64,000 nt of DNA, from IMG/VR virus record IMGVR_UViG_3300014911_000002, positions 1 through 64,000 of that record. One strand, 5' to 3'. Source of the DNA: a virus. Shown here one piece after another: positions 2,791 through 29,449 of this stretch (position 1 is its first letter; each line of letters starts with the position of its first letter). Under the pieces are notes generated by a model that saw nothing but the letters and a program-made list of their open reading frames with translations, was not told the DNA's origin and made no database searches. A program made the translations under genes and the position numbers.

Positions 2791-5700
2791 ATGCCTAGTC
2801 TTGGGGAAATTTCTGTAAGAATTGTCCTCGACTTCCGAGGAATTACTGCACAGCTTAAACAATTTCGTAAATTACTCCAGACTGGGTTACAGCAAATCTC
2901 TAAAGAAATCTCCACTGGTTTTAAACCTCTTGGAGTAGCTCCTAAAGAATTTCAAAAAGCCTTTCAGAATATTGCTAAGACGGCTGCGAAACAAAGTCAG
3001 AAGACAGCTGCTATTGTTGGGAAAGGCGGAAGGAGAATAGGCAAGGCATTTGAAGAGGCTGCTCAGCCTATTTATCTTGGCTTCCCACGTGCAATGGATA
3101 CTATGCATCGACAGGTTTCTCGCTCTCTCTTTTCGGTTTTAAGGGATATGCTATCGTTCAGAAACATGATTACGAAAATAGTTCACTATATTACATTCAC
3201 CATCGGTGTGCAGATGGTCATGGGAATAGTTCGTGGTATAGGTCAGGTTACTGAGTCAACAAAGGAATTTCAACGTGCCATAGTAAACGCAGCTACTATC
3301 TCAGGATATCTTGGCGGTGCATTCGAAAAGGTTACTGCACACCTAGAAAAACTTGCTTTAGAACTTTCTAAGGAAACTGTCTTTTCGGCAGTAGATGTGG
3401 CCAAAGCATTTTATCAAATTGCATCAGCTGGTTACGACGTTTCGAAATTAACCAAACGCGAGCTCATACCAATATTGAATTATGCTGCGGCTACTCAAAG
3501 CACGCTTGAAGATGCCACTTATGCAGTATTAACCGCACTAAAAGCATTCAGACTAGATATCTCTGAAACTTCACACGTAGTTGACGTCTTCACTGCAGCT
3601 ATAACTAAATCATTCCAGAATTTCGATAGGCTTAGAGAAGGGATGAAATACGTAGGCGCAACTGCTGGCTCTCTAAATCTTTCAATAGAGGAAACAGTCG
3701 CAGCGTTATCAGCCTTGGTTGATCGTGGATTGGAAGGCTCGCAGGCAGGACAAAGACTCAATATGATACTCACAAGATTATTGAAGCCAACGGACCAGGC
3801 TGCAGAGACCCTGGAGCAGCTAGGTTTGACAGCGGATGATGTGAATCCCAAATACTATGATTTGGTTGAAATCTTATATAAATTGAAGGCTGCTGGTTTT
3901 GGTGCAGCAGAAGCATCCGCAATGTTCAGAGCTAGAACCGCAGCATCTGCTGTAGTGTTAGTACAGTCTGCTGATGACATCGCTCGTTTTACCGCGATGC
4001 TAGAACGTTCACAAGGCATAACCGAAACCGTTGCGGAATATCAAGAACGAACTCTATGGGGTGCACTAACTAAGGTTTCAAATGCTCTTCAAGCAGCATC
4101 GATTACTCTCGGCAAATCCTTGATTCCTGTCTTCGAATGGGCTGCTGGTGTAATCAAAGCTAAAGTTGTTCCTATGATTGAATCGGTGGCAAATGCATTC
4201 AAGTACTGGAAAGGCACAATATTCCCTGCCATCAAACTTCTTATTTCAATGCTTATCGGCTATAAAGCTGCGATGTTTGCGGTTTCAATCATGAGCAAAT
4301 ATGTCACAGGATTACAAATACTACAAGCAACAGCAATGACGAAAAATGCTCAAATAACGCTTCAAGCTGCTTTAGCACAACGTCTGTATGCTGAAGCTCA
4401 ACGCGAATTGGCAATAATGACTGGTCAAGCTACAGCTGCACAACTTGCCTTAAATGCAGCAATGTTGGCCAATCCCATCACTCTTCTCCTCATAGCTATT
4501 GGCTCTCTCGTATCTTATATGGTATTATTCGGGAGTGAAACGAAAAAGGCAAAGGACCCGCTTGAGGATCTTAACACATCTATGCTTGATGCAATTAGGT
4601 TTACCGAAGATTGGCAAAATACCATTAAAGATTTTGCTAAGGCTAATTATTCTGACGTATTTAAGAAAGAGGAGGATGCTATATCAGGATTCCTCCAAAG
4701 AATAGGTTTAAAGCATAAAGGAACAGCAGAGTTGGCCAGAAGGCTCTGGCGTGATATGGCAAAAGATCCCGAAGCCTATGCGGATGTGATAGAAGAGATT
4801 GCAAAAAGAACTGGATATTCCGTTGAAGAGATAAGGCAAGCATTAGCGGGTAAGACGACATTGCCAACATCAGTTTGGGGAAAGGGCGCAATTGAACAGG
4901 CAAGGCAGTTTTCCAAAGAGGTGAAAATAGCTCAAGATAGCATAGGAGCATTAGAAGATATGTTTACGACTACCCTTAGAGGCGTTTCAACTTCTTTTGC
5001 CCAAATTTCAGGAGAACTTTTAGCATTTCAGAATTCTATCCAGGAAATAACAGATGCTACAGAAGAATTTAGAGAAGCTGAAAACGAGTTAAACAGGACT
5101 TTGGCAGAATCCCCAGATAATCTGCGTGCCATAAAAGACGCAACCGAACGGTATGTAAACGCTCAATCCAAATTAGATCTAGTCTCAAAGAGGTTTTTAT
5201 CATCGCTCAAGGATTTGGTTCAGTCAATTCGTGAACTTCCAGGTCCTTACGATGAGGTCGTAGGTATTATGGAAGATATGGCAGATGCTATGCATAGCGC
5301 ATTTATTGCCGAGAAAGACCTTGCAGCAGCCGCAAGAGAAGAAGAAGAAGCGTTATCAAATCTTGCCAATACTCTTGCTTTATACGGTGCACAATCTTCA
5401 GAAGCAAGAAATGCCGAATATAAGTTGTTTGCAGCTATGAAGCAAAGAATGCAACTCGAAGACGAATTGGCATCTGCAACAAAAGACTATGAGGCTGCAC
5501 AACGAAAGCTTAATTTCATTATGGAACACGGTATAGAAGTTCAAACAGAATCTGGAACAACGACCATAAAACTAACATCAGTTCAGAAAGATCTTTTGGA
5601 TATGACAGAAAAACTAATACGATTAAGGGAACAATATATTCGTGCAGAGGCCGAATATATTGAACTTCAGGCTAAACAAAACGCATACCAATATCTTCTT

Positions 5701-8112
5701 GAGAAAGGAAGTAGGATATTAGCTGAGAAGAGTAAGATTTTGTTCGAGGCAAGGAAAAAACTTTATGATATAGAATATAAGCTTTACAAATTAAGAGTCG
5801 ATGAGGATGAACAACTAGGAGACCTCTTTAAGAAACTGGCAAAAGAGGGTTTCATAAATCAAAGCGTGGTCGATACTTACAAGGACATGATGTTGGCTAA
5901 AGGCGAACTCCTTAAACTTCATCCAAAGCTTGCAGCTATTTATGGGCGATTGAATGAAGAACAGAAAGAGCTCGTTGAGAATTATATTAAAACAGGTAAG
6001 GGTTTAGAGAGGCTTACATTCCTCACTGATGATGAGATAAATACAGTTGTAGCATTCAGAAATGCACAGCTTAGATTTTCTTCTGCAACTGAAGATCTTC
6101 GAAATGTTCTCACTCCTTTGATTGGTGATCTCATAGACATAGGTGCTGTATCCTCCGATGTTGCAAAATCCTATTTCGATCTTATAGACAATACGGGTGA
6201 GATAATCACATATAATCTTGAGTTACTTAAAATCAATGATGATCTCTCCCAGAGCATTGGTGATATAATTGGTGTGGTTGCCAGATTAGCTAGAGCATTA
6301 CAGGATGAGGCTGATGAAACCGATAGTGTCGCAGATGTCTATGATGAATTAGTTAAACAGCTTGGTCTTTCCAAGGAATTCGGTGACGATTATGGTGGCA
6401 TCTTAAAGACCCTCAACAAACTATACGGTACATCATATCGCTCGATTTCAGACTTCTCTGATGCTCAGTTATTAGTTGCTGCCGCATTAGTTAAAGTGGC
6501 CAAGAATGCCGGAATATACGAACGTGGTATGACCGCTGCAGAGATTGCAACTAGATTGCATATCTCTTCCCTTAACGAACTCACAGATGCAGCGCAATAT
6601 GCGTATGACAGTGAAGATTCTATGTATTCCATCACCACTAAACTCCAAGAAGCAGCAAATACTCTTAGCGGGACCTTCTCTGAGATGAATAAAACACTCA
6701 ATGAATTGGTTAACACCTATTATCGGTCTAATAAAGATCTTTTGCAATTTGCTCTTACTTGGGATTTTGCAGACACGCTTATGAATCGATTTGGCGGAAA
6801 TTTCGAAGAATTGGTTGCCACCATGCGAGCACAGGATCTTTCATTCACCATAGATATGATGACAAAATGGGATGGTAAGGATTGGGACGCATTTATTACT
6901 TCATTAAGCGGTGATAGAAGAGATGCGTTTTTCAAAGCCGTTGCTATGATGTCTGGTACATCAGTAGATATAGTCTCTAAATGGGATGGCGATGACTGGA
7001 AGGACTTTATTTCAGGTCTATCCTCAGATAAGATGAAGGCCATTTCATCTATCTTAACCTCAGAAGACTTGAATTTCAATATCGAAGCATTGCTGCAGGG
7101 AGTGCCACTTGCAGAACGAGTTAGGACGCTTCCGGATGATTTGAAAAACGAATTAAAACAAAGATTATCAACTTTGACCGATATCCCAGCTATCAATATT
7201 GATGCTCTGCTTCAAGGCGAAGCTGATTGGGCTAAGGGCATAAAGCCAGAACAGGTTCAAAAAGTCCAGCGGTTTTTAGACTCTCTTCCTGTAGATGAGA
7301 GAAGCCTTAATATTAAACCTACTATAGATACCACTAAAAGCACCGAAAAATCTTTGTGGGACGCAATATGCGATCTATTTTCTGGTATAGGAGCAACCTT
7401 CAAAAGGGGCATAGGTTGGGTAATAGATGTTATTGTGAACACAGTTACAGGCGGAGGCGGCGGTAGAGGCGGAGGTGGTGGAAGAGGTGGACGAGGAGGT
7501 GGAGGAGGGGAAAAACCACCACCTCCACCGCCGCCAAAACCAGAGGATAAAGGGAAGGTCGCTGGCATCTGGATAGAATGGAAAGATACTGATAAGCGAA
7601 CTGCAACTGGTCAAAAAATTTATGAAGCGACTTTTATAGCAAAATCCACAACTGGTTTATCCCATATCATAGGCAAGGCTGTCGGCACTACCGACGAGGT
7701 ACATAAAATTCACCAGGAACTTATAGGAAAATATGTCAACAAACCGTGGCCATGGGCATTCGGTGGTATCGCCGGACTTGCAATGAAAGCAGCCTCATTT
7801 AAACGTAGTGCGATAGTCAAAGGACCAGTGAATGCTTTAATTGGTGAAGCTGGACCAGAAGCTGTTATACCACTTGCAGGAAGATATAGAAGATATGGTG
7901 AGAAACTTCTTAGAGCAATCATCCCACGATATTTCCCAGACTTGCGAATGCAATATGGAAGCGTAGTTGAACGGCCTTTACCCGAGCGCATCACCACGAA
8001 TAGAGAAGAATTTATCATCAGAGGACCAATAATTATTGAGCACGTTGCAAGTCTAGAAGATTTTGTAAGTCAGCTAAAGTTTAGAGCCAGAGCTGCCGCT
8101 CCCACATCATGA
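2791..8112 (+). CDS. Tail tape measure protein (TP901-like core)
   Basis: 1773 aa, Ala/Leu-rich and helical; FSAVDVAKAFYQIASAG, GMKYVGATA, EETVAALSALVDRGLEGSQAGQRL, ANPITLL and C-terminal GEAGPEAVIPL motifs. Confidence 0.95.
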   Translation: MPSLGEISVRIVLDFRGITAQLKQFRKLLQTGLQQISKEISTGFKPLGVAPKEFQKAFQNIAKTAAKQSQKTAAIVGKGGRRIGKAFEEAAQPIYLGFPRAMDTMHRQVSRSLFSVLRDMLSFRNMITKIVHYITFTIGVQMVMGIVRGIGQVTESTKEFQRAIVNAATISGYLGGAFEKVTAHLEKLALELSKETVFSAVDVAKAFYQIASAGYDVSKLTKRELIPILNYAAATQSTLEDATYAVLTALKAFRLDISETSHVVDVFTAAITKSFQNFDRLREGMKYVGATAGSLNLSIEETVAALSALVDRGLEGSQAGQRLNMILTRLLKPTDQAAETLEQLGLTADDVNPKYYDLVEILYKLKAAGFGAAEASAMFRARTAASAVVLVQSADDIARFTAMLERSQGITETVAEYQERTLWGALTKVSNALQAASITLGKSLIPVFEWAAGVIKAKVVPMIESVANAFKYWKGTIFPAIKLLISMLIGYKAAMFAVSIMSKYVTGLQILQATAMTKNAQITLQAALAQRLYAEAQRELAIMTGQATAAQLALNAAMLANPITLLLIAIGSLVSYMVLFGSETKKAKDPLEDLNTSMLDAIRFTEDWQNTIKDFAKANYSDVFKKEEDAISGFLQRIGLKHKGTAELARRLWRDMAKDPEAYADVIEEIAKRTGYSVEEIRQALAGKTTLPTSVWGKGAIEQARQFSKEVKIAQDSIGALEDMFTTTLRGVSTSFAQISGELLAFQNSIQEITDATEEFREAENELNRTLAESPDNLRAIKDATERYVNAQSKLDLVSKRFLSSLKDLVQSIRELPGPYDEVVGIMEDMADAMHSAFIAEKDLAAAAREEEEALSNLANTLALYGAQSSEARNAEYKLFAAMKQRMQLEDELASATKDYEAAQRKLNFIMEHGIEVQTESGTTTIKLTSVQKDLLDMTEKLIRLREQYIRAEAEYIELQAKQNAYQYLLEKGSRILAEKSKILFEARKKLYDIEYKLYKLRVDEDEQLGDLFKKLAKEGFINQSVVDTYKDMMLAKGELLKLHPKLAAIYGRLNEEQKELVENYIKTGKGLERLTFLTDDEINTVVAFRNAQLRFSSATEDLRNVLTPLIGDLIDIGAVSSDVAKSYFDLIDNTGEIITYNLELLKINDDLSQSIGDIIGVVARLARALQDEADETDSVADVYDELVKQLGLSKEFGDDYGGILKTLNKLYGTSYRSISDFSDAQLLVAAALVKVAKNAGIYERGMTAAEIATRLHISSLNELTDAAQYAYDSEDSMYSITTKLQEAANTLSGTFSEMNKTLNELVNTYYRSNKDLLQFALTWDFADTLMNRFGGNFEELVATMRAQDLSFTIDMMTKWDGKDWDAFITSLSGDRRDAFFKAVAMMSGTSVDIVSKWDGDDWKDFISGLSSDKMKAISSILTSEDLNFNIEALLQGVPLAERVRTLPDDLKNELKQRLSTLTDIPAINIDALLQGEADWAKGIKPEQVQKVQRFLDSLPVDERSLNIKPTIDTTKSTEKSLWDAICDLFSGIGATFKRGIGWVIDVIVNTVTGGGGGRGGGGGRGGRGGGGGEKPPPPPPPKPEDKGKVAGIWIEWKDTDKRTATGQKIYEATFIAKSTTGLSHIIGKAVGTTDEVHKIHQELIGKYVNKPWPWAFGGIAGLAMKAASFKRSAIVKGPVNALIGEAGPEAVIPLAGRYRRYGEKLLRAIIPRYFPDLRMQYGSVVERPLPERITTNREEFIIRGPIIIEHVASLEDFVSQLKFRARAAAPTS

Positions 8113-9566
8113 CGTCATTTTCAATTGTTTTCAATCCAGGTGAAGAAAACGAACTTACCATTTCCTCTGGAGATAATCTAGAATCTCTCACTATAAACCA
8201 TTCCAACGAGAGCTACTATAAAGATGCAGAAGTCGCGCTTTATAACATACCAGATTTTGAGGAGAAGGTATCTATAAATTCGCGAGTCAATATTTATATA
8301 GATGGGCATCTAGAATTCTCTGGATATGTTTCAAGAATACAGACAAGAATTAGCGGAGTAAAGATCTTCTATCTTCAATGTATTGGACGTACATACGATC
8401 TCTGGCGATTCATGATATCTGGCGACACTTATTTCGAAAAAAAATATTCAGCTTATATAGTTTCATCTCTTGTCGCCCAATATTGTTCCGGGCATGGAAT
8501 CTATATAACACCACCGGATGTCAGGGAAACGGATGGAAGCTATATTGAATACATTGATGTTTCCTTGATGGCCGTTGGGGATGCGATAGCACGCATAGCA
8601 AAATTCGATGGTCATCATTTCTTTGTTGATGAATATGGAAAACTTAGATATTATACCGTATCATCCTCTGTTCAATTTACCGTAACAACATCAGACATTC
8701 TTGAAATGGAACCCCTAGAGCATTCAGATGATTATATTAGAAATGACGTCTTAGTGGTTGGTTCTCAACAATACGAACAAATTATTCCTGATCAACTCCC
8801 ACCCTTTACATCTGGGAATTGGATTTGGATATCATCAGCAACAACATTCGTTGCACAGCAATTTGGAGTGCCCGCACTAGAAACCAATAGATTAACCTCA
8901 TTAAAACTCCGTGCTACGAGAAGCAAAGGCAAGAATACTCCACTGTATCTTGCGGGAGATATCCGAAATGATAATTCCGGAGAACCTGGATCCATAGTTG
9001 CATCCTCCAATACTATAACCTGGCATGGTGTCGATATTCAGGCTGACCCTTCTGGTACTTGGCTTCCATTCTATACATTTTCCAATCATCTATATCTTTC
9101 AGGAGGCGCAGCATATTGGGCAGTATTCCACTTCCCCGGTGCTAGCTCAAACATTTGGTGGAAACTTTCATATTCTCCTCTTCCGGACTATACAGATGTG
9201 CTTTCATCAGAACCAACATTATATGGAACTTGGGATTATGGAAGTATCGATTACGGTGATGTGGTCTATGATTCTGGGAATAATGAAGTAGATTTTGTTG
9301 CTAAACCAAGAGGATATGCATCAGCCAATACGTTCTTACAAGACATCACACCACGAACTCGTTATTTCTACCTTCCATCATCCTTATTTACTGATGAAAT
9401 TAATTTCCTTGCCAAAGTACGGATAGACAAATATGAAAGCGGGAATAAAGGCCTTGGGAATTACAGGCGCACCGATGATGGTAGATATAGACCAAGATTT
9501 ATGATCGGTTTATGTGATATGTCCCATCCAGCAAAACCAATGTTTGGATTTGAATTCGATCTATAG
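8109..9566 (+). CDS. Baseplate hub/tail protein, N-terminal half
   Basis: Directly after the TMP (ATGA overlap). FSGYVSRI, IARIAKFDGHHFFVDEYGKLRY and IRNDVLVVG hub motifs, followed by an incomplete beta-sandwich insert. Confidence 0.8.
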   Translation: MTSFSIVFNPGEENELTISSGDNLESLTINHSNESYYKDAEVALYNIPDFEEKVSINSRVNIYIDGHLEFSGYVSRIQTRISGVKIFYLQCIGRTYDLWRFMISGDTYFEKKYSAYIVSSLVAQYCSGHGIYITPPDVRETDGSYIEYIDVSLMAVGDAIARIAKFDGHHFFVDEYGKLRYYTVSSSVQFTVTTSDILEMEPLEHSDDYIRNDVLVVGSQQYEQIIPDQLPPFTSGNWIWISSATTFVAQQFGVPALETNRLTSLKLRATRSKGKNTPLYLAGDIRNDNSGEPGSIVASSNTITWHGVDIQADPSGTWLPFYTFSNHLYLSGGAAYWAVFHFPGASSNIWWKLSYSPLPDYTDVLSSEPTLYGTWDYGSIDYGDVVYDSGNNEVDFVAKPRGYASANTFLQDITPRTRYFYLPSSLFTDEINFLAKVRIDKYESGNKGLGNYRRTDDGRYRPRFMIGLCDMSHPAKPMFGFEFDL

Positions 9567-9574
9567 GTGAAATT

Positions 9575-9781
9575 ATGGCGAGAGGGATTGAGCATAGAGA
9601 TGTTGGAGATCAGCTTTCAAAGACTGAATGGCTTGAAGGTGCTCACTACTTTATGAGCGGTACATCTTTTCCCGCTTCTCCAGCTGAAGGTGATGTATTT
9701 TATAAAACGGATGAGCATGTGTTGTATATTTATGATGGAACTTCCTGGAAGCCACTTGGTCCCACTGCTGTATATGGCTAA
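9575..9781 (+). CDS. Small tail-fibre-motif protein
   Basis: GGTGA RBS; SGTSFPASPAEGDVFYKTDEHVLYIYDGTSW matches the common phage fibre motif P-x-x-P-x-x-GD-x-[WF]...Y-x-Y-x-G-x-x-W. Confidence 0.7.
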   Translation: MARGIEHRDVGDQLSKTEWLEGAHYFMSGTSFPASPAEGDVFYKTDEHVLYIYDGTSWKPLGPTAVYG

Positions 9782-9791
9782 TTGAGAGAAT

Positions 9792-10271
9792 ATGGGATAT
9801 TCTTGGACTCCTATAAATAAAGGGGATCTTATAAAAGCTGCACACTTCAACGAAATCAAAGATAATCTCGAAGACCTCTATGATGAATTGCAATTGGATT
9901 CTCCATCCTGGACGTACTTTCCAGTTAGTGTTGGTCAGATTATCAAGAAAGACCATATTCAGGAATTAAGAGATAAGACCGATTATGCCGATGATATGAA
10001 TTACTGTCGTGCTCACGATGGCACTTACAACAATAGTATCGATTCTGGCTATAAATACAGCGTTGATTCCGGCGACAACTACAGTTATAAGGGAAGCTAT
10101 AATAGCGGTGTTGATAGCTCCTACAACTCAGCTGTTCATACAAATAATAATGACACAGTCGATTTAGATGAGTATTCTACGGTATATAACGGAAATGAAG
10201 CCTACGTATTGCTTGTAAACAAAAATCCCTACGATTCCGATACGTGGTCACCCTATTATAATGGCAATTAG
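9792..10271 (+). CDS. Repeat protein A, putative radical SAM substrate
   Basis: Two WTxxxxGxxIKxxHxxEL/IxD motifs, then a Cys and a 4/8-periodic Y/S/D/N/G-rich tract. Confidence 0.75.
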   Translation: MGYSWTPINKGDLIKAAHFNEIKDNLEDLYDELQLDSPSWTYFPVSVGQIIKKDHIQELRDKTDYADDMNYCRAHDGTYNNSIDSGYKYSVDSGDNYSYKGSYNSGVDSSYNSAVHTNNNDTVDLDEYSTVYNGNEAYVLLVNKNPYDSDTWSPYYNGN

Positions 10272-10279
10272 GTGATAGT

Positions 10280-10648
10280 ATGGCTTTTACCTGGACGCCA
10301 ATAGATGTTGGCGATGTTATTAAGAAAGCTCATGTTATCGAACTTCGCGACAATATAGATTATATTTCTGATAATCTCGCATGCGTTACAGATAAGGATT
10401 CAGTCCATAGCTCTTATGACTCAAGCTATAAATCGGGATATAACACAACAGTTGATAATTACGATAAAGGAACCTATAAGAGTGATCACAAAACTGGTAA
10501 CTACTGGGGTCATGAAGCCACTATATATTCAAACAATGATATAAATGAATATGGAACCCATGATGAATCCGCACTGTCCGCACCTGATAAAGGAACCTAC
10601 AACGGAGGTTATTATGTCGACTGCTCGGGATATAATTCACCAGTTTAG
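10280..10648 (+). CDS. Repeat protein B, paralog of A, putative radical SAM substrate
   Basis: GGTGA RBS; WTPIDVGDVIKKAHVIELRDNID, then a Cys and a 4-periodic tract. Confidence 0.75.
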   Translation: MAFTWTPIDVGDVIKKAHVIELRDNIDYISDNLACVTDKDSVHSSYDSSYKSGYNTTVDNYDKGTYKSDHKTGNYWGHEATIYSNNDINEYGTHDESALSAPDKGTYNGGYYVDCSGYNSPV

Positions 10649-11942
10649 AGAAATTCAAGCACTTGAGTTGTTCACATCTGCATTATGTCCGCTCAATTGT
10701 AGGTACTGCTATATTCCTAAATGTTCTGCAATGGCGAACATACATAACGACATAATTCAGAATACCTTAACAAATGAACAAACTAGAATCGTAAAAGAAA
10801 AATTTCCAAATTTAAGAACGATATCGTTATGGGGTGCAGAACCTACAGTATCATTAGAGAATTTACTGCCAAAATTGAAAAAATTTGCAGAATCTATAAA
10901 TAAGCTAGATTCGATCACTTTTTCCACAAATTTTGTAAATATAAAACCTATTAAACACCTATTGAAGGTATTCGAAGATATAGATATAGAATTAAAAATT
11001 CAAATATCTCTTGATGGGCCAGACTTTATCACCGATTATAATCGTGCACCAGGTCTAACTAAGCGAATTCTTGAAAACATTGACGAGCTCATTGATTTTG
11101 CAAAACAATTGGAATTCAAGAGAAAACCATTAATTCATTTTAAATCAACAATCACTACTGAAAATATGCGATATATGTTAAATAGAAATCTAATAGAGGA
11201 ATATTTTTCATTTTGGGATGAGTTGTTTTCATCAATAAAAGAGAAAGAATCCAATATGGCATTTATTCTCAAATGCTATCCAACACTTGAGGTTCCTGGA
11301 CGATATACAAAATTAGACGGTGAGACGTTTGCTAATTTCCTCAAACAAGTACATAGTATTGGCCAACATTCCGACTACACCTTTAGACTAATTCGACTTG
11401 TTCAATTTAGTAAGAACCTATATGCAAGACACCATGAATTCACCTGTTCAGCAATGGATTCGAATTTAGGCCTAGATGGGCTTACAGTCCATCCATGCCA
11501 CAGGACATTTTTCCTAGATCGTCAAGAATACTTAGATGCAATACTTAGGATGGATGCATATCAAAATTGGGATGTCTCACTTCTTGATAAAGGACTTATT
11601 GACGCAGCCAACAAAAACTTTGTGGTCCCAATAAAAGATAACGATTTTTCACGGTTTGCCTACCTTGGTCGAGCCTATCATGATTTCTTTCGATTTCGTG
11701 TATCTATTACTTCAGCGATCATTCACGAAATGGCACTCGCTGGAGAAGTCGGCAAATACTATTTAAGATTACCTGAGCTAAGGGAACTATTGAGTATATT
11801 TCTTCATGCAGCAGTCGGATGCCCAGTCGAATCGATATTGAATTCAGGCTCTATCCATCTTCCAATCCTTTCTTTGATTAGACTATTTGGAAATGGAGCT
11901 TTTATCGAGGTGATTAAAGATGCGGTTAATACCCTTGGATGA
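10614..11942 (+). CDS. Radical SAM enzyme with partial SPASM/twitch domain
   Basis: CPLNCRYC, WGAEP, ISLDGP, TCSA...HPCHR; GGAGGT RBS precedes the ATG at 10614. Confidence 0.9.
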   Translation: MSTARDIIHQFREIQALELFTSALCPLNCRYCYIPKCSAMANIHNDIIQNTLTNEQTRIVKEKFPNLRTISLWGAEPTVSLENLLPKLKKFAESINKLDSITFSTNFVNIKPIKHLLKVFEDIDIELKIQISLDGPDFITDYNRAPGLTKRILENIDELIDFAKQLEFKRKPLIHFKSTITTENMRYMLNRNLIEEYFSFWDELFSSIKEKESNMAFILKCYPTLEVPGRYTKLDGETFANFLKQVHSIGQHSDYTFRLIRLVQFSKNLYARHHEFTCSAMDSNLGLDGLTVHPCHRTFFLDRQEYLDAILRMDAYQNWDVSLLDKGLIDAANKNFVVPIKDNDFSRFAYLGRAYHDFFRFRVSITSAIIHEMALAGEVGKYYLRLPELRELLSIFLHAAVGCPVESILNSGSIHLPILSLIRLFGNGAFIEVIKDAVNTLG

Positions 11943-13227
11943 TGATGCAAAAGTTCTTGTTAATTTTCTAAATCGCACATTTCTTTCAGGATTTAAACAT
12001 CCTGAAAAAATGCCAAATTATAGCACAATAGAGCTTATAATAGACCCCTATTGCAATTTGGCGTGCAAATATTGTTATCTCAACAAATATGGAAAAGAGC
12101 TGAATCCAAATATTTCGATTTCTTCAATCCAAGAAAACTCGAAGAAGATAATAGATTTCCTTAAGGATTCAGGTTTTAAGGGAAGAATTGAGATATTCGG
12201 AGGAGAACCTCTTATAAAAGACTATGTATTAGATATAATAGAACGGCTTTTAATAGAGACAGACGCTAAGGAAATAGTAGTCCCATCTAATATGACTTTC
12301 CTATTGAATATGCAGAAAGATAAGAGAGTTAGAGAATTAATTGAGTTAGGAAAGGATCTTGGAAGGCCCTTCCTCATATCCTCATCCTGGGACGGAAAAT
12401 TAATGCAGGCGATCAATCGACCATTCAAAGTGAAAAAATCTGTGGATTTTGATGCTTGGGCGGATAAAATTTTTGAATTTGCAACTCACTATAAAATTGG
12501 ATTTCACCCGATGATATATTCAAATAATATAGAACAATGGTTTGATAATTTTTTATGGTTTCAGAAAAAATTCCAAGAGTTCAACATACCATTTAGCAGC
12601 CTTTATCTTTTGGAAGTACGAAACCCTGAATGGACGGTTGAACAAATCAAAGCATTCATGACCTTTATTGATAATGTTGTTAAATGGACATTTCACACGC
12701 CTTGCAAATCGCAAAAGGAAAATTTTCTCGAGTTTTTATTCGAAAAAAGAGGGTATAATTTACTATCCGCACCATTTTCAACGATAGGAAGAGGTATTGG
12801 TTGCTCCATTCAATCTGCACTGCACATTCGAGTTAATGATCTTGCCATAGTGCCATGCCATAGAACGTCTTATGAGCATTTTGTTGCTGGATATCTCAAG
12901 TTTGACGGAAAAAATGTCTATGTCAAATCGAAAAACATAGTCCCATATTTAGCCATACATACGCTTTCTGCAAAAACACTTCCTATGTGCGAACACTGTC
13001 CTCTCAATTCTATGTGTTCATTTGGATGTTTAGGTGCACAGTATGAAACTACAGGCGATTTATTTACGCCTATCCCAACAGTATGTATGCTTGAGCACGG
13101 AAAAGTTTTTCAACTTATCAAGAGCTTTATGGATATTAATGTACTAAACGATATAAAGGCTAGGGTTTCTCCTGATAAAAAATCAGCCATAGATTTATTT
13201 GAGGGGTATTATGAACGAGGTGTTTGA
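11920..13227 (+). CDS. Radical SAM/SPASM peptide-maturase-like enzyme
   Basis: CNLACKYC, FGGEP, GCSI...VPCHR, CEHCPLNSMCSFGCLG...PTVC. Confidence 0.92.
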   Translation: MRLIPLDDDAKVLVNFLNRTFLSGFKHPEKMPNYSTIELIIDPYCNLACKYCYLNKYGKELNPNISISSIQENSKKIIDFLKDSGFKGRIEIFGGEPLIKDYVLDIIERLLIETDAKEIVVPSNMTFLLNMQKDKRVRELIELGKDLGRPFLISSSWDGKLMQAINRPFKVKKSVDFDAWADKIFEFATHYKIGFHPMIYSNNIEQWFDNFLWFQKKFQEFNIPFSSLYLLEVRNPEWTVEQIKAFMTFIDNVVKWTFHTPCKSQKENFLEFLFEKRGYNLLSAPFSTIGRGIGCSIQSALHIRVNDLAIVPCHRTSYEHFVAGYLKFDGKNVYVKSKNIVPYLAIHTLSAKTLPMCEHCPLNSMCSFGCLGAQYETTGDLFTPIPTVCMLEHGKVFQLIKSFMDINVLNDIKARVSPDKKSAIDLFEGYYERGV

Positions 13228-13699
13228 ACGAGTTAAAGGTGAATTAAAAGCTAGAAAATTTATTCCGTTGATACTCTCGAAGGATTTCATCAAAGAACTT
13301 TGGGGGACTGTATCGGATATTGAAAAAGAAATCAGAAAGGCGATTGAAGGAGAGAAGATCGAAAAAGACGATAAGATATATGAGTCAATCAAGAAATTTA
13401 GGGATATTTTTCGGGAGAGAATTGTGAGGGAACCGCTTTCTCCAAATCTTGCTAAATTTATACGAGATGTTCTCACTATATTTTACAATTATCTTTCAGC
13501 AGTCGATGATCAAGAGATGAAGGAAGAAATGTTAATACTAGTAAGATTATTAGATGGTTTTCTAACGTTGAATGAAGCTATAGCGATTTCTAGAGAACTA
13601 ATTGACTATCTCCGCAGGATGATGTACTATTCACCACCATATGTTGAACTTTCCAAGCATTATCTTGAAACGCTCCTTAACGAATGTGAAGAGCCATAG
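13211..13699 (+). CDS. Helical hypothetical protein, last gene of the rSAM cassette
   Basis: GAGGGG RBS; overlaps the rSAM2 stop; no recognised motif. Confidence 0.65.
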   Translation: MNEVFERVKGELKARKFIPLILSKDFIKELWGTVSDIEKEIRKAIEGEKIEKDDKIYESIKKFRDIFRERIVREPLSPNLAKFIRDVLTIFYNYLSAVDDQEMKEEMLILVRLLDGFLTLNEAIAISRELIDYLRRMMYYSPPYVELSKHYLETLLNECEEP

Positions 13700-13709
13700 C
13701 TATTAATTC

Positions 13710-14573
13710 ATGACTGATGGTGGATTTCCTTATACATTTCCATTCTTCTTCGAGGATTCTTTTCAGAAACAAGTGAGAGCATTCGTAATGGTAGATCTAA
13801 CAGAGCATGATACAGCAAAACCCCAGGTCAAATTTGGTGCATGGCAACCAACGGGCTCTAGCACATACAGATGTATGATATCGGGCCTCAAACTTTATTT
13901 TTACATCGATGAAACATTGAAAGACACAATTAACCTTTCAGACCTCACCCTAGATCAGAATATAAAATTTGGACGAGGGTCGCCGCATAATTTCAATACT
14001 CTCGTATTCCGCATGATTGATACAGCGTATTCCTCTCAAGGAGTTGTTGCCTCCTCTGGCGCGTTCCCTTGGATATCCGGTGCCCTATGGGAATATTCAG
14101 TCGAAGATCTTGCTCAGGGTTTGAAAGTTTCCTACGATAGTGGCTCTTCTTGGACTCTACATCCCGATAAAAAACTCGATCTCGTATTAGGTTGGAATTA
14201 TGATTACGTCACAGGACGATATAAGGATTCTGGTTCGATTCAAACTTATGGTCCTCACTTTTATAAAGTAAGTGAACCGCTTATAACCACAAGAGATGAT
14301 GCAAGAACCCTAGCAAGAAGATATGTCGAGACTTACAAAGATGGAATTAAAACAGGTTCGGTGACAATTAAAGGCAAAACAGATATTTCTCTTTCAAATA
14401 AATTCAGGCTTTATCTCCCAGAAGTTGGAATCAATGAGACATTAGTTATAGCATCATATCAGCAACGGATAGATAAGAATGGTTTCACTACAAGAATCAA
14501 TTATGGTACAGTTCCATATGATATTGCAGCTAAAGTTGCACGGCTTGAGCGTAAGATAGAGTCTCAAATATAA
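13710..14573 (+). CDS. Baseplate hub/tail protein, C-terminal half (alternative start 13788)
   Basis: DSGSIQTYG...ITTRDDARTLARRYVETYK...GSVTIKG...GFTTRINYG is a typical hub C-terminus; same reading frame as 8109..9566. Confidence 0.78.
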   Translation: MTDGGFPYTFPFFFEDSFQKQVRAFVMVDLTEHDTAKPQVKFGAWQPTGSSTYRCMISGLKLYFYIDETLKDTINLSDLTLDQNIKFGRGSPHNFNTLVFRMIDTAYSSQGVVASSGAFPWISGALWEYSVEDLAQGLKVSYDSGSSWTLHPDKKLDLVLGWNYDYVTGRYKDSGSIQTYGPHFYKVSEPLITTRDDARTLARRYVETYKDGIKTGSVTIKGKTDISLSNKFRLYLPEVGINETLVIASYQQRIDKNGFTTRINYGTVPYDIAAKVARLERKIESQI

Positions 14574-14675: not shown

Positions 14676-15644
14676 ATGGCCTTGGAGCCTTCATCAGGAT
14701 GGTCTTACTATAAACAAATTGATATTTCTGATGCTGCTAATGTTAGTGCTAACTATCAGATGAGATTAACAGTTTATGCTGGAGAAGGTGAGGATGATAC
14801 CGCTGATGGAATAATTTATTGCGATAATCATTGTGAGAATTTTCCGAATGACATTCGTTTTGGCACTAGAAATGACCCATCCATCGCCACTCAACTTGCT
14901 CAATGGATTGAGGAGAGTGATGCTACGAGTGCAACTATCTGGGTGAAATGCCCAAGTGATGGAAGCGATACATTCTACATGTTCGTTGGGAATTCATCAG
15001 CAAGTCAGTATAGCGATGGTGAAAATACATTTATTTTCTTTGATGATTTTGAAAGCTATGATACAGATAAATGGCAAACAGATGCCGGCTCTCCAGAAAT
15101 ATCTGGCAACACCTGGTTGAGACTTAAGAACGGAGTCAAAGTGAAGACAGTTGATACTTTCGTTCGACCAAAGCGTTTTTTCATGAAAGTGAAGATTAAG
15201 CACATTGAGTCTAACGATGATGATTTCCATCTTATGCTTGCAAACCAATATAGAAATAACAGAGATGATGATATTGATTTTGACTTTGATACAAGCCCAA
15301 TAGCGTTATATCTGATGGTTCATAATGACAATAGTGGAGGTTATAGAAACATAAGTTACACATCAGATACAATATACAAATGCTTCGCAAAATGGAAGAG
15401 CGATGAAGTTAAAATGTATATAGATGGTAAATTAAAATACGCACAATCATCTCCCATTCCCGATGAGGCTTTAAATATTCGACTTGAAGATAGATATGGA
15501 AATGGTGACGAGGCTTATATTGACTATGTAGCAATTTTAAAATATGCATCAACAGAGCCTGCATGGTCATATTTCAGTCCGTGGATAGATATGTCGGAAG
15601 TTCAATCTAATCTACCATTTTTGAATATAGCCTTTAAAAAATGA
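14676..15644 (+). CDS. DUF2341-domain protein with lectin/LamG-like C-terminus (virion)
   Basis: WSYYKQIDI, NYQMRL, FPNDIRF, LAQWIE, ATIWVK, TFIFFDDFE motifs. Confidence 0.8.
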   Translation: MALEPSSGWSYYKQIDISDAANVSANYQMRLTVYAGEGEDDTADGIIYCDNHCENFPNDIRFGTRNDPSIATQLAQWIEESDATSATIWVKCPSDGSDTFYMFVGNSSASQYSDGENTFIFFDDFESYDTDKWQTDAGSPEISGNTWLRLKNGVKVKTVDTFVRPKRFFMKVKIKHIESNDDDFHLMLANQYRNNRDDDIDFDFDTSPIALYLMVHNDNSGGYRNISYTSDTIYKCFAKWKSDEVKMYIDGKLKYAQSSPIPDEALNIRLEDRYGNGDEAYIDYVAILKYASTEPAWSYFSPWIDMSEVQSNLPFLNIAFKK

Positions 15645-15970
15645 ATACTATAGCTTATGGAATGTGCCTGAGATGGGACGAAGAGAACTGGAATGTAATC
15701 CTAGAAGTAGTTATGCGTAGTTCTCATCGGGACGCTCTACTTCAGAACATAACTCCTGGCGCAGTAGCGGAGTTATATAACATCCTTGGAGAGCCTAAGT
15801 ATATCGATACAACTTATAACTCAGGAAATACTCTATGGGTGTATCCATTATCTGGCACAGGTTTATTCGATTTGAGAGAGCCTGTGAAAATAGCCGTTAA
15901 AAATTACTCTGAACACCTTCTTCGGGATGGAACATTTAGGATAAAAATTGAAGGAGTAAAATTAGAATGA
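15641..15970 (+). CDS. Hypothetical tail-region protein, paralog of the next gene
   Basis: ITPGAVAELYNILGEPKYIDTT...VKNYSE...FRIKIEG. Confidence 0.7.
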   Translation: MNTIAYGMCLRWDEENWNVILEVVMRSSHRDALLQNITPGAVAELYNILGEPKYIDTTYNSGNTLWVYPLSGTGLFDLREPVKIAVKNYSEHLLRDGTFRIKIEGVKLE

Positions 15971-16356
15971 CATTTGGACCAAAATTAATAAGAATTTATT
16001 ACTCATCCCTTTCCATTCCACATTATATCGATGCAACCTGCACCCGTTTAGAAATCTCCAACTATTCTGTTATATTCGAAACTATTTTAGATAAAAATCA
16101 AAGGGATAAATTATACAACCATATTACTCCAGGTGCTGTGTCGACTCTCTATCAAATACTCGGAAAACCAGTTTTCTACGATACAACCCTTAGAGGTCTT
16201 AATACTATAATGCTTGCACCTATTGCTGGTACAAGAATCAATGATGCCTACGATAATATCATCTTATATGTGAAAAACTATTCTGAGTTTATCGACCCAG
16301 CAAATAATTTCCATATAAAGATAGAAGGATACATTTCGGGTGAGTTTTATGGTTAA
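15967..16356 (+). CDS. Hypothetical tail-region protein, paralog of the previous gene
   Basis: ITPGAVSTLYQILGKPVFYDTT...VKNYSE...FHIKIEG. Confidence 0.7.
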   Translation: MTFGPKLIRIYYSSLSIPHYIDATCTRLEISNYSVIFETILDKNQRDKLYNHITPGAVSTLYQILGKPVFYDTTLRGLNTIMLAPIAGTRINDAYDNIILYVKNYSEFIDPANNFHIKIEGYISGEFYG

Positions 16357-28762: not shown

Positions 28763-29449
28763 TCACCTGATAATGCATCTCTGAACGTAATATTCTGCAC
28801 GTTTTTTAATCATTTGTAACTCATCGTCTGTGAATTCTCTAATGTTCTTTGCACGTTTCGGATTCAATGCTTTCGTAAATTTAAACCGCTGGAGAGCATA
28901 TAATCTTGCTCCCTCGATATATTTCGCTATCTCCTCGATATCATCCATATCAAGAATTCCTCTGCCGATGGTCGTTCTAAATTCATAATCTAGATTGCTG
29001 TTCATCAACAGCCTTATGCTTTCCTTTATATCATTTATATTTACATCAGCACAAGCGATGTCTCGGTATTTCCCAAATGGACCTTTTATATCCATAGCTA
29101 TGTAATCGACTAAATCCTGTTCGATAAGTTCCTCCAGCATTCTAGGATTAGAACCATTTGTATCAAGTTTGATTAGAAAACCCATCTCCTTGATTTTCTT
29201 CAGGAAAGAAGGGAGATCTTCTTGCAATGTTGGCTCGCCACCTGTTATTACAACACCACTGATTTTCCTACGACGTCTGCCCAAGAAATCTAATATCTCT
29301 TTCTCGGAATAGACACCATCTTTTTGAGCTATAAGTTCTGGATTATGACAATAAAAACAACGGAAATTACATCCCTGAGTGAATATAACCGCTGCAATCT
29401 TCCCTGGATAGTCAATCAGGGAGGTCTTAAGAAGGCCGCCTATTCTCAT
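28763..29449 (-). CDS. nrdG: Anaerobic ribonucleotide reductase activating enzyme
   Basis: SLIDYPG, GCNFRCFYCHNP, TGGEPT, KLDTNG; adjacent to nrdD. Confidence 0.93.
   Translation of the reverse strand: MRIGGLLKTSLIDYPGKIAAVIFTQGCNFRCFYCHNPELIAQKDGVYSEKEILDFLGRRRRKISGVVITGGEPTLQEDLPSFLKKIKEMGFLIKLDTNGSNPRMLEELIEQDLVDYIAMDIKGPFGKYRDIACADVNINDIKESIRLLMNSNLDYEFRTTIGRGILDMDDIEEIAKYIEGARLYALQRFKFTKALNPKRAKNIREFTDDELQMIKKRAEYYVQRCIIR

Follow-up and report, generated by a model that had tools for sequence, protein, structure and literature searches.

What would a virus do with a pair of radical S-adenosylmethionine (rSAM) enzymes encoded amid its tail genes, side by side with two small repetitive proteins? 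This question is raised by a 64,000-nucleotide stretch of viral DNA (hereafter the window), positions 1 to 64,000 of the 89,379-bp IMG/VR record IMGVR_UViG_3300014911_000002, which has direct terminal repeats. Between positions 9575 and 13699, six co-oriented open reading frames (ORFs) on the + strand follow one another with gaps of 8-10 nucleotides or with overlaps, exactly where a first-pass annotation of this DNA had described six tightly coupled genes. They encode p68 (9575..9781, 68 amino acids), protein A (9792..10271, 159 amino acids), its paralogue protein B (10280..10648, 122 amino acids), rSAM1 (10545..11942, 465 amino acids), rSAM2 (11920..13227, 435 amino acids) and p166 (13199..13699, 166 amino acids). 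We find that the last five are a conserved unit, present in dozens of loci from viruses and cells, and we propose, with about an even chance of being right, that A and B would be repeat proteins stapled by the two enzymes, located outside the cytoplasm and, in the window virus, mounted on the tail.

The conservation of the unit was established with a profile made from an rSAM2 alignment (A1), which retrieved 45 loci from IMG/VR and 26 from GTDB species genomes. In these 71 loci, at least 10 of which are duplicates or near-duplicates and several of which are cut by contig ends, ORFs were called under genetic code 11 and compared with iterated local profiles, giving rSAM2 in 70, rSAM1 in 63, p166 in 62 and the N-terminal domain of A/B in 49. 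The usual gene order is A-B-rSAM1-rSAM2-p166, with p166 behind rSAM2; A-B follow p166 in L011-L014 and L071, and each rSAM gene has its own p166 paralogue behind it in L018, L020, L025, L027 and L029. At loci to which no A/B label could be given (L010, L066, L069), low-complexity ORFs occupy the A/B slot. In the reverse search, all 10 IMG/VR loci retrieved with an A-domain profile contained the enzyme pair, and every one lies on a contig that the rSAM2 search had already yielded. Chance co-occurrence is ruled out by the same gene set in dozens of loci, and the claim of the first-pass annotation that enzymes and repeat proteins form a unit is borne out: A, B, rSAM1, rSAM2 and p166 are a conserved five-gene cassette. 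A literature search found no paper on it.

Six of the loci appeared to be broken, with in-frame stops in rSAM2 that were only TGA or only TAG, and reading through the recoded stops restored the full cassette, including A/B, in L028, L036 and L042. In L028 and L036 (about 7450-11830) the in-frame stops of the cassette are TGA only; the positions of two coincide with the invariant Trp5 and Trp40 of the A/B head, evidence in favour of TGA being read as Trp. In L031, L039 and L042 the in-frame stops are TAG only.

Proteins A and B, the presumed substrates, both start with W-T-x4-G-x2-I-K-x2-H. In A the head comprises 72 residues with two W...G..I...H..E.R motifs, ends at Cys72 and is followed by a tail of 87 residues. 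B, like the B-type proteins in general, has a single copy of the motif, with a boundary cysteine as in A (Cys35 in the window), and also an 87-residue tail, composed of tetrads; it matches the A/B N-terminal profile with E = 7.7e-20. In 16 A-type proteins W5, W40, P44, R60, D64 and C72 are invariant. A search of 1.84 billion proteins with the A-head profile yielded 409 representatives at E ≤ 1e-3, nearly all of them 85-250 amino acids long with the domain at residues 1-72, and no match was found among PDB sequences (best E = 0.14).

Both the length and the sequence of the tails are hypervariable, even when the window is compared with L004 and L005, the two viral contigs closest to it; what the tails share is a register of four residues. 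Counted from the boundary cysteine, the four phases hold C and then N/D, S/T/A, T/S/G, and H/Y/V/D, and in 69 distinct tails this register keeps its sharpness over 48 residues or more. The autocorrelation of Ser/Thr over 8956 tail residues amounts to 0.26-0.32 at lags 4, 8, 12 and 16, and is negative at lags 2 and 6. The composition is acidic (D 14, S 13, N 11, T 10, Y 10, G 8 and H 4.5%, with K+R at 3.3%), and cysteine is rare (median 1.7%, maximum 9.3% in 143 representatives). Four positions after the boundary cysteine stands N in 28% and D in 20%, which gives a Cys-x-x-x-Asp/Asn spacing. A conserved head with a hypervariable tail has the leader-and-core shape of modified peptides, in products that are here 100-400 amino acids long, and no protease is seen in the cassette. 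That the Ser/Thr-rich tails are candidates for O-glycosylation is pure speculation.

In rare long proteins the A domain is fused to other parts: LamG-like (L016, P0249), DUF5000/discoidin (P0256, E = 4e-20) and a glycosidase-like C-terminus (P0268). In the large lectin-like proteins P0256 and P0249 its position is C-terminal or internal. By analogy, such lectin-like and enzymatic parts are the pattern expected of adhesins and receptor-binding proteins. A C-terminal SDxRLK tag, which is the start of endosialidase-type chaperones, was rejected as a general A/B feature, being present in only 1 of 92 A/B ORFs and in P0249.

The two enzymes differ in their cluster sites. The SPASM domain is defined by the pattern C-x(n)-G-x4-C ... 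C-x2-C-x5-C-x3-C ... C and holds two auxiliary clusters. In rSAM2, which belongs to the radical SAM superfamily (PF04055, 37.2 bits at a gathering threshold of 29.5), the CxxxCxxC motif (C45, C49, C52) is accompanied by seven further cysteines (C295, C313, C357, C360, C366, C370, C389) that follow this pattern, with a first spacing of 17 residues; the seven are invariant in 30 and in 53 aligned relatives, and all 10 cysteines are invariant in the 53. rSAM1, at 28.5 bits 1 bit under the PF04055 threshold, has the CxxxCxxC motif (C48, C52, C55) conserved in 98% of 50 members, in which the only further conserved cysteines are C301, C318 and C426 (conservation 0.98-1.0). With only these three further cysteines conserved, rSAM1 does not have the seven-cysteine pattern of a full SPASM domain; its auxiliary-cluster region is truncated and twitch-like, and among NCBIfam families it comes closest to the twitch-type N_Twi_rSAM (48 bits, cut-off 170). 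Thus, the earlier description of one full and one partial SPASM enzyme was correct. The two are distant paralogues (22% identity, E = 5e-7), and rSAM1 may truly start at an internal ATG at 10614, which gives 442 amino acids.

The rSAM2 family is large and nameless: at E ≤ 1e-5 it comprises 654 proteins, and identities of 40-50% are common. Its nearest solved structures by sequence are CteB (5wgg, E = 1.6e-10), then 8vpo, then ChlB (E = 2e-4). Among the NCBIfam matches listed (the best 25 of 26 for rSAM1 and the best 25 of 59 for rSAM2), all relatives with a name are maturases of peptides or proteins, namely PapB, HxsB and cyclophane formers, to which the structure search adds CteB. The presumed enzyme helper, p166, has a conserved C-terminal PP-x-F-E-L-S-x-H-Y-L motif and no Pfam, NCBIfam or PADLOC family; its sole NCBIfam match at E ≤ 0.1 is a chance-level acyl-CoA synthetase, and its Atlas record, which begins at residue 5 (position 13211), gave no usable match. 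Campylobacter phage rSAM proteins match the enzymes at about 25% identity (E about 1e-3) and were rejected as part of a related cassette, the CPt10 neighbourhood having no matching module. A third short rSAM-like ORF of 228 amino acids lies in the window at 28763-29449 (- strand) and weakly matches the profiles of the cassette enzymes (E about 1e-3).

Does the cassette belong to a system already described? The first-pass annotation had pointed to the CXXX-repeat maturases, and these are the closest in repeat logic: CXXX-repeat systems (TIGR04115, TIGR04116, TIGR04119, with TIGR04114-type targets and PF27846, tSAM_targ_Cxxx_rpt) likewise combine two maturases and a small helper with targets that have a conserved head and a special residue at every fourth tail position. 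The profile searches nevertheless failed the family cut-offs. TIGR04115 was matched at 20.3 bits, against a cut-off of 350, and only over model positions 3-73, the generic rSAM core, and 12 of 14 control genomes match at that level as well; for TIGR04119 and TIGR04116 there was no match at E ≤ 1 in the whole 89-kb genome. In addition, the targets differ, since A and B have cysteine only in the first tetrad and then Asp/Asn in that phase, instead of a cysteine at every fourth residue, and so membership was rejected. With tails nearly free of cysteine after the first tetrad, thioether chemistry along the tail is impossible. In the Atlas, A lies near mostly viral clusters with PF27846 in 23-25% of members (feature score 0.86; TM 0.54), which is a sub-threshold lead and not a test.

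The closest published architecture is that of HXS. In the available portion of its description (PMC13128918), HXS comprises a pair of rSAM enzymes, a small protein that binds HxsC as its partner, and an HxS-repeat effector that undergoes a +8 Da change, is matured in the cytoplasm and is then exported; the effector HxsA binds DNA and acts through its basic HxS repeats and a peptidoglycan-binding domain, and 99.7% of the systems are from Pseudomonadota. As far as that portion goes, an adjacent rSAM pair, a small partner and aromatic-X-Ser repeats are features that the cassette parallels, with Tyr/His-Asp/Asn-Ser/Thr steps in A/B in place of aromatic-X-Ser. By the same account, the gene order is D-B-C-A, whereas in the cassette it is A-B-rSAM1-rSAM2-p166; the HXS effector is basic with five repeats, whereas the A/B tails are acidic with tens of repeats; and HXS is found in Pseudomonadota, whereas the cassette is found in viral contigs and in metagenome-assembled genomes (MAGs) labelled as candidate phyla radiation (CPR) or DPANN. 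The two enzymes score 28.3 and 34.2 bits against HxsB (TIGR03978; E = 7e-7 and 1e-8), far under its cut-off of 370; HxsC is not among the best 25 of 26 (rSAM1) or the best 25 of 59 (rSAM2) NCBIfam families; and neither A, B nor p166 matches HxsA or HxsD (NCBIfam, E ≤ 0.1). Membership in HXS was rejected on the scores for HxsB and the unmatched HxsA and HxsD.

The triceptide enzymes (GrrM/OscB, YhhB, FxsB, AmcB and ChlB, PDB 9gm3) also have repeated aromatic-X-X motifs as their targets. In the accessible part of one report (PMC11499958), enzymes of this type form C-C, C-N and C-O crosslinks, including on His. Their families match rSAM1 weakly (E = 6e-6 to 7e-4), the ChlB match to the rSAM2 profile is that given above, and membership was rejected, with 18.8-26.4 bits against cut-offs of 310-445 (TIGR04261, NF041707, TIGR04269, NF041718). 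Unlike these systems, the cassette has substrates of 100-400 amino acids, two enzymes with a helper and no protease, and an aromatic residue in only about 38% of tetrads.

Among protein-level thioether maturases, we compared the PapB type, CrpC/CrpA and QhpD. The motif of the PapB type is Cys-X3-Asp, which the spacing at the A/B boundary resembles, and PapB (NF047865) is the best NCBIfam match of rSAM2, at 57.3 bits over model positions 2-328 of 330. This is far from the cut-off of 340, as are the 40.9 bits of rSAM1, and membership among PapB-type ranthipeptide systems was rejected. With a single cysteine in each A/B substrate, in contrast to PapB-type targets, at most one such link could form, and the rest of the tail would need another chemistry. 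A SPASM enzyme that staples a whole protein is described for CrpC/CrpA of Methanococcus in the portion of the source available (PMC13692751). Judged from these profile comparisons, the cassette falls below the thresholds of the CXXX-repeat, HXS, PapB and triceptide families, whose construction it nevertheless resembles.

Where are A and B used? In the window, the cassette lies within a tail operon, because 5' of it, ahead of the gene for a 485-residue protein (p485), lies the gene for the tape measure protein (2791..8112, + strand, 1773 amino acids; phrog_1533 tail length tape measure, E = 8.4e-63, and 17 more tape-measure PHROGs) and more tail genes follow 3'. The ORF directly 5' of A matches tail-fibre, tail-spike, central-fibre-J or baseplate PHROGs in 6 of 10 loci tested (L001, L007, L016, L044, L060, L061); that of L009 matches a family of unknown function only, and those of L003, L008 and L038 match none. 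A second class of ORFs upstream of A (L003, L006, L009, L015, L022) has a weak match to the phi29 gp12 appendage autochaperone (E = 0.008), and tail-spike, tail-fibre, collagen-like and LamG families occur among 118 upstream neighbours tallied. The link to tail genes that the first-pass annotation had drawn is thus upheld for viruses. Terminase-like and HK97-type capsid genes lie at 69-80 kb of the 89-kb genome, on the same strand as the cassette. Of the 14 records matching the capsid protein, 10 are archaeal viruses, with haloarchaeal tailed viruses nearest (best E = 5e-25, 27-29% identity), so that the archaeal origin first proposed is plausible, and it is reasonable to place the cassette in the tail module of a probably archaeal virus. 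Among listed sequence data sets, no RNA set contains this DNA, and the only one that covers it in full is a sediment metagenome, from which it may have come.

In cells the setting is different. On a 238-kb contig of a Parcubacteria MAG (L056), the cassette is surrounded by housekeeping genes, with a class-V aminotransferase, a family 2 glycosyltransferase (GT2), a cupredoxin-like protein and TatC on one side, and pyruvate:ferredoxin oxidoreductase subunits, RecG and the CCA-adding enzyme on the other; in a search of this genome no capsid match was found and the only terminase match was at chance level. This chromosomal context rules out a tail-only system. It also goes against the idea that the products are virion parts by nature, for which occurrence outside tail modules had itself been named as the refuting case. 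TatC, of the twin-arginine translocation (Tat) system, is the commonest Pfam family among the upstream neighbours (5 of 118); it adjoins the cassette in 6 of the 26 GTDB loci (strongly in 5, with mutual identities of 41-80%) and in none of the 45 from IMG/VR. In five CPR MAG loci (L056 3900-7100, L050, L051, L052, L055), tatC, a tatA-like gene, a gene for a protein of 75-90 amino acids with an RRxFLK twin-arginine signal, and one for a small zinc-ribbon-like protein precede the cassette in this order. Thus, the earlier remark that no protease, transporter or immunity gene is present is true for the window, and fails for the CPR relatives, in which TatA/TatC adjoin the cassette. From the L056 context and the Tat genes of the five CPR loci it follows that the module is autonomous, also cellular and there has its own translocase, and that its product is probably extracytoplasmic in general. 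In a quick tree, Tat-linked cellular cassettes and viral cassettes interleave, with weak deep forks.

Some further features of these cellular loci may be mentioned. L056 and L050 have a third, very short A/B-like gene (90-110 amino acids), and just 5' of tatC both encode a secreted protein of 243 amino acids (L056 4462-5193, L050 4135-4863) with an IGIGT...FPDG(S/T)TQ(S/T)TA motif, which we take to be typical of fibre-like proteins. In an Iainarchaeum MAG, tatC/tatA are downstream of the cassette and not upstream, and L057 (4188-5272) is a further cassette locus listed with the Tat-linked ones.

The viral and cellular settings are bridged by one small module. The C-terminal ~58 residues of the small CPR protein encoded next to A (...YG-x-V-H-Y-x-D-x-x-F-x-E-x-x-C-x-x-C ... 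P-x-H-x-x-C) recur as the extreme C-terminus of the ORF directly 5' of A in L001, L007, L016, L044, L060, L061 and L062 (E = 1e-17 to 3e-9). Cells therefore encode this zinc-ribbon-like module as a separate protein and viruses as the distal end of fibre-like proteins, and it always adjoins A, a placement that leads us to infer a role as adaptor for A/B. In longer proteins of the large database, the domain was found in 8 close relatives only. In the window its slot is taken by p68, to which the role of A adaptor may fall in this virus. p68 has a GD-x-F/Y...Y-x-Y-DG-x-x-W motif of tail-fibre type, as had been noted earlier, and matches to such families do exist, although they are weak (DUF2793, E = 0.043; tail-fibre and related PHROGs, E = 1.6e-4 to 6.5e-3). 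A DUF2793-like motif is found near the cassette in 5 loci only.

Taken together, these features would be explained by a self-contained maturation module with A and B as its substrates. The A/B head would probably serve both as the recognition handle for the enzymes and as a docking part. In the reducing cytoplasm, rSAM1, with one auxiliary cluster site, and rSAM2, with its full SPASM domain, would add repeated covalent modifications along the tail, probably both helped by p166. The chemistry that we prefer is side-chain crosslinking at the Tyr/His-Asp/Asn-Ser/Thr steps, with a possible thioether from Cys to Asp/Asn (i, i+4) at the boundary. The product would then act outside the cytoplasm, which it would leave in CPR cells through the dedicated TatA/TatC, and in viruses it would be mounted on the tail, in many relatives via the zinc-ribbon-like domain at the far end of the fibre and in the window virus perhaps through p68. 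Its likely role would be that of a stapled, oxygen-independent adhesive or receptor-contact "bristle". A more specific form of this proposal, which we put forward only tentatively, is that the twin enzymes turn the Asp/Asn-Ser/Thr-Tyr/His tetrads into a chain of non-thioether side-chain macrocycles on a whole protein, independently of O2, by a chemistry that for twin rSAM enzymes would be new, producing a host-contact bristle used by CPR/DPANN cells after Tat export and, with the zinc-ribbon adaptor, by their viruses.

Several observations weigh against this proposal. In the window itself, a profile search found no zinc-ribbon-like module. The periodic tails that had been ascribed to both proteins are very strong at period 4 across the family and significant in the window for B, whose lag-4 Ser/Thr autocorrelation was equalled in 15 of 5000 shuffles, but not for A alone (413 of 5000). 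Tyr/His occupy only about 38% of the phase-3 positions, so that a cyclophane at every tetrad is impossible. The chromosomal, virus-free cassette of L056 means that a virion is not required. Among the neighbours of the 71 loci, most flanking ORFs have no family, tape-measure families appear in only 3-4 of 31 large upstream ORFs, and the downstream genes are mixed (glycosyltransferases, further rSAMs, terminase, portal, protease). The family is also patchy: in the order to which the L056 genome belongs, 151 genomes were sampled and only 2 have the enzyme, a distribution that a mobile defence or accessory island would fit too.

Indeed, the cassette could be an HXS-like system for defence or superinfection exclusion, a moron in the tail operon whose modified, envelope-located effector blocks competing viruses. 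Besides the patchy distribution and the Tat linkage of the CPR versions, this agrees with the weak HxsB matches of both enzymes and with the parallel to HXS in its available description (PMC13128918), namely two rSAMs, a binding partner and a repeat effector that is matured and exported. We nonetheless consider it improbable, as the tails are acidic (D 14%, K+R 3.3%) and not basic like the HxsA repeats, no peptidoglycan-binding domain was found, the HxsB scores of 28-34 bits are far from 370 with HxsA and HxsD unmatched, and the PADLOC defence library gives only weak viperin-like rSAM matches; Tat genes adjoin none of the 45 IMG/VR cassettes, and fusions of the zinc-ribbon-like module to tail fibres and of the A domain to lectin-like parts are unexpected for a defence effector. 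Similarly unlikely, in our view, is a reading in which A and B serve unmodified, as ordinary proteins of a fibre or decoration, and the rSAM enzymes act elsewhere, for example on the neighbouring tail fibre, a glycan or a nucleotide. In its favour, the virus is rich in genes for sugar and other modifications and has the third weak rSAM match at 28763-29449, and glycosyltransferases and further rSAMs are among the downstream neighbours at other loci. Against this, the enzyme pair and A/B stay linked in settings as different as viral tail modules, a CPR chromosome and loci whose stop codons are recoded, whereas the flanking p485, p287 and p322 (L004/L005 only) do not accompany them; substrates of rSAM-SPASM enzymes usually combine, as A and B do, a conserved N-terminal domain with a periodic tail that is hypervariable, and peptides or proteins are the targets of all the nearest named enzyme families.

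The leader-and-core shape, the relatedness to SPASM maturases and the export genes of the CPR operons would also suit a secreted product akin to peptides that are ribosomally synthesized and then modified post-translationally (RiPPs), such as an antimicrobial, a signal or a metal binder, with the head as a removed leader and the viral copies as auxiliary cargo. We find this very unlikely. Neither the window cassette nor the commonest neighbour families include a protease or an ATP-binding cassette (ABC) exporter, A/B products are 100-400 amino acids long, and in P0256 and P0249 the N-domain is internal or C-terminal and so not a removable leader; moreover, the Tat translocase carries folded proteins and is unsuited to short peptides. 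The first-pass annotation had already set virion appendages against secreted antibiotics, and of that claim the link to viral fibres stands, whereas a restriction to virions does not, the module being autonomous and found in cells with TatC/TatA.

If A and B are indeed stapled repeat proteins, RiPP-type radical chemistry would extend from short secreted peptides to whole structural and surface proteins, and would shift from cysteine-based links to tails almost without cysteine, for which a different bond type is needed. It would provide an enzyme-made substitute for disulfides and oxidative crosslinks in the host-touching parts of anaerobic viruses and of CPR/DPANN cells, which are tiny and live attached to surfaces. 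The cassette also connects the CXXX-repeat systems, known only from databases, with their versions in phage tail fibres and with HXS defence, three subjects that have been handled separately until now. The operon of tatC, tatA, the twin-arginine signal protein and the adaptor is a testable case for the export of an already crosslinked protein, and a substrate with a conserved head and a periodic tail that is hypervariable lends itself to engineering as a scaffold.

The genes flanking the cassette in the window are confined to close relatives. p485 (8109..9566, + strand, 485 amino acids), the upstream neighbour, has no Pfam or PHROG match, and p287 (13710..14573, + strand, 287 amino acids), a protein of the downstream tail module, has only a faint YQBQ-like match (E = 0.085). 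Together with p68 and p322 they were found only in L004/L005, to which the identity is 90-92% for the A head, 81-84% for p68, 59-60% for p287, 47-48% for p485, 39-44% for the enzymes and 29-41% for the tape measure. The high conservation of both p68 and the A head suggests either a recent exchange or a tightly constrained pair. Single-protein searches of IMG/VR with rSAM2, p287 and p485 gave no close relatives, and an alignment of three sequences including p287 again found L004/L005, with a faint partial match in L078, which does not have the cassette.

No fused relative was found of a hub gene that the cassette might have split; GATCTA, the candidate duplication at the cassette junctions, was seen before the p485 stop and not at the far junction. 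After p287 comes a DUF2341 protein (14676-15644, E = 1.7e-18), followed at the end of the tail operon by two adjacent small paralogues of 109 and 129 amino acids (15641-16356) that have an ITPGAV...LY.ILG.P motif in common. Within the tape measure gene, at about 7260-7400, a Gly/Arg run (GGGGRGGGGGRGGRGGGGG) is followed by a Pro run.

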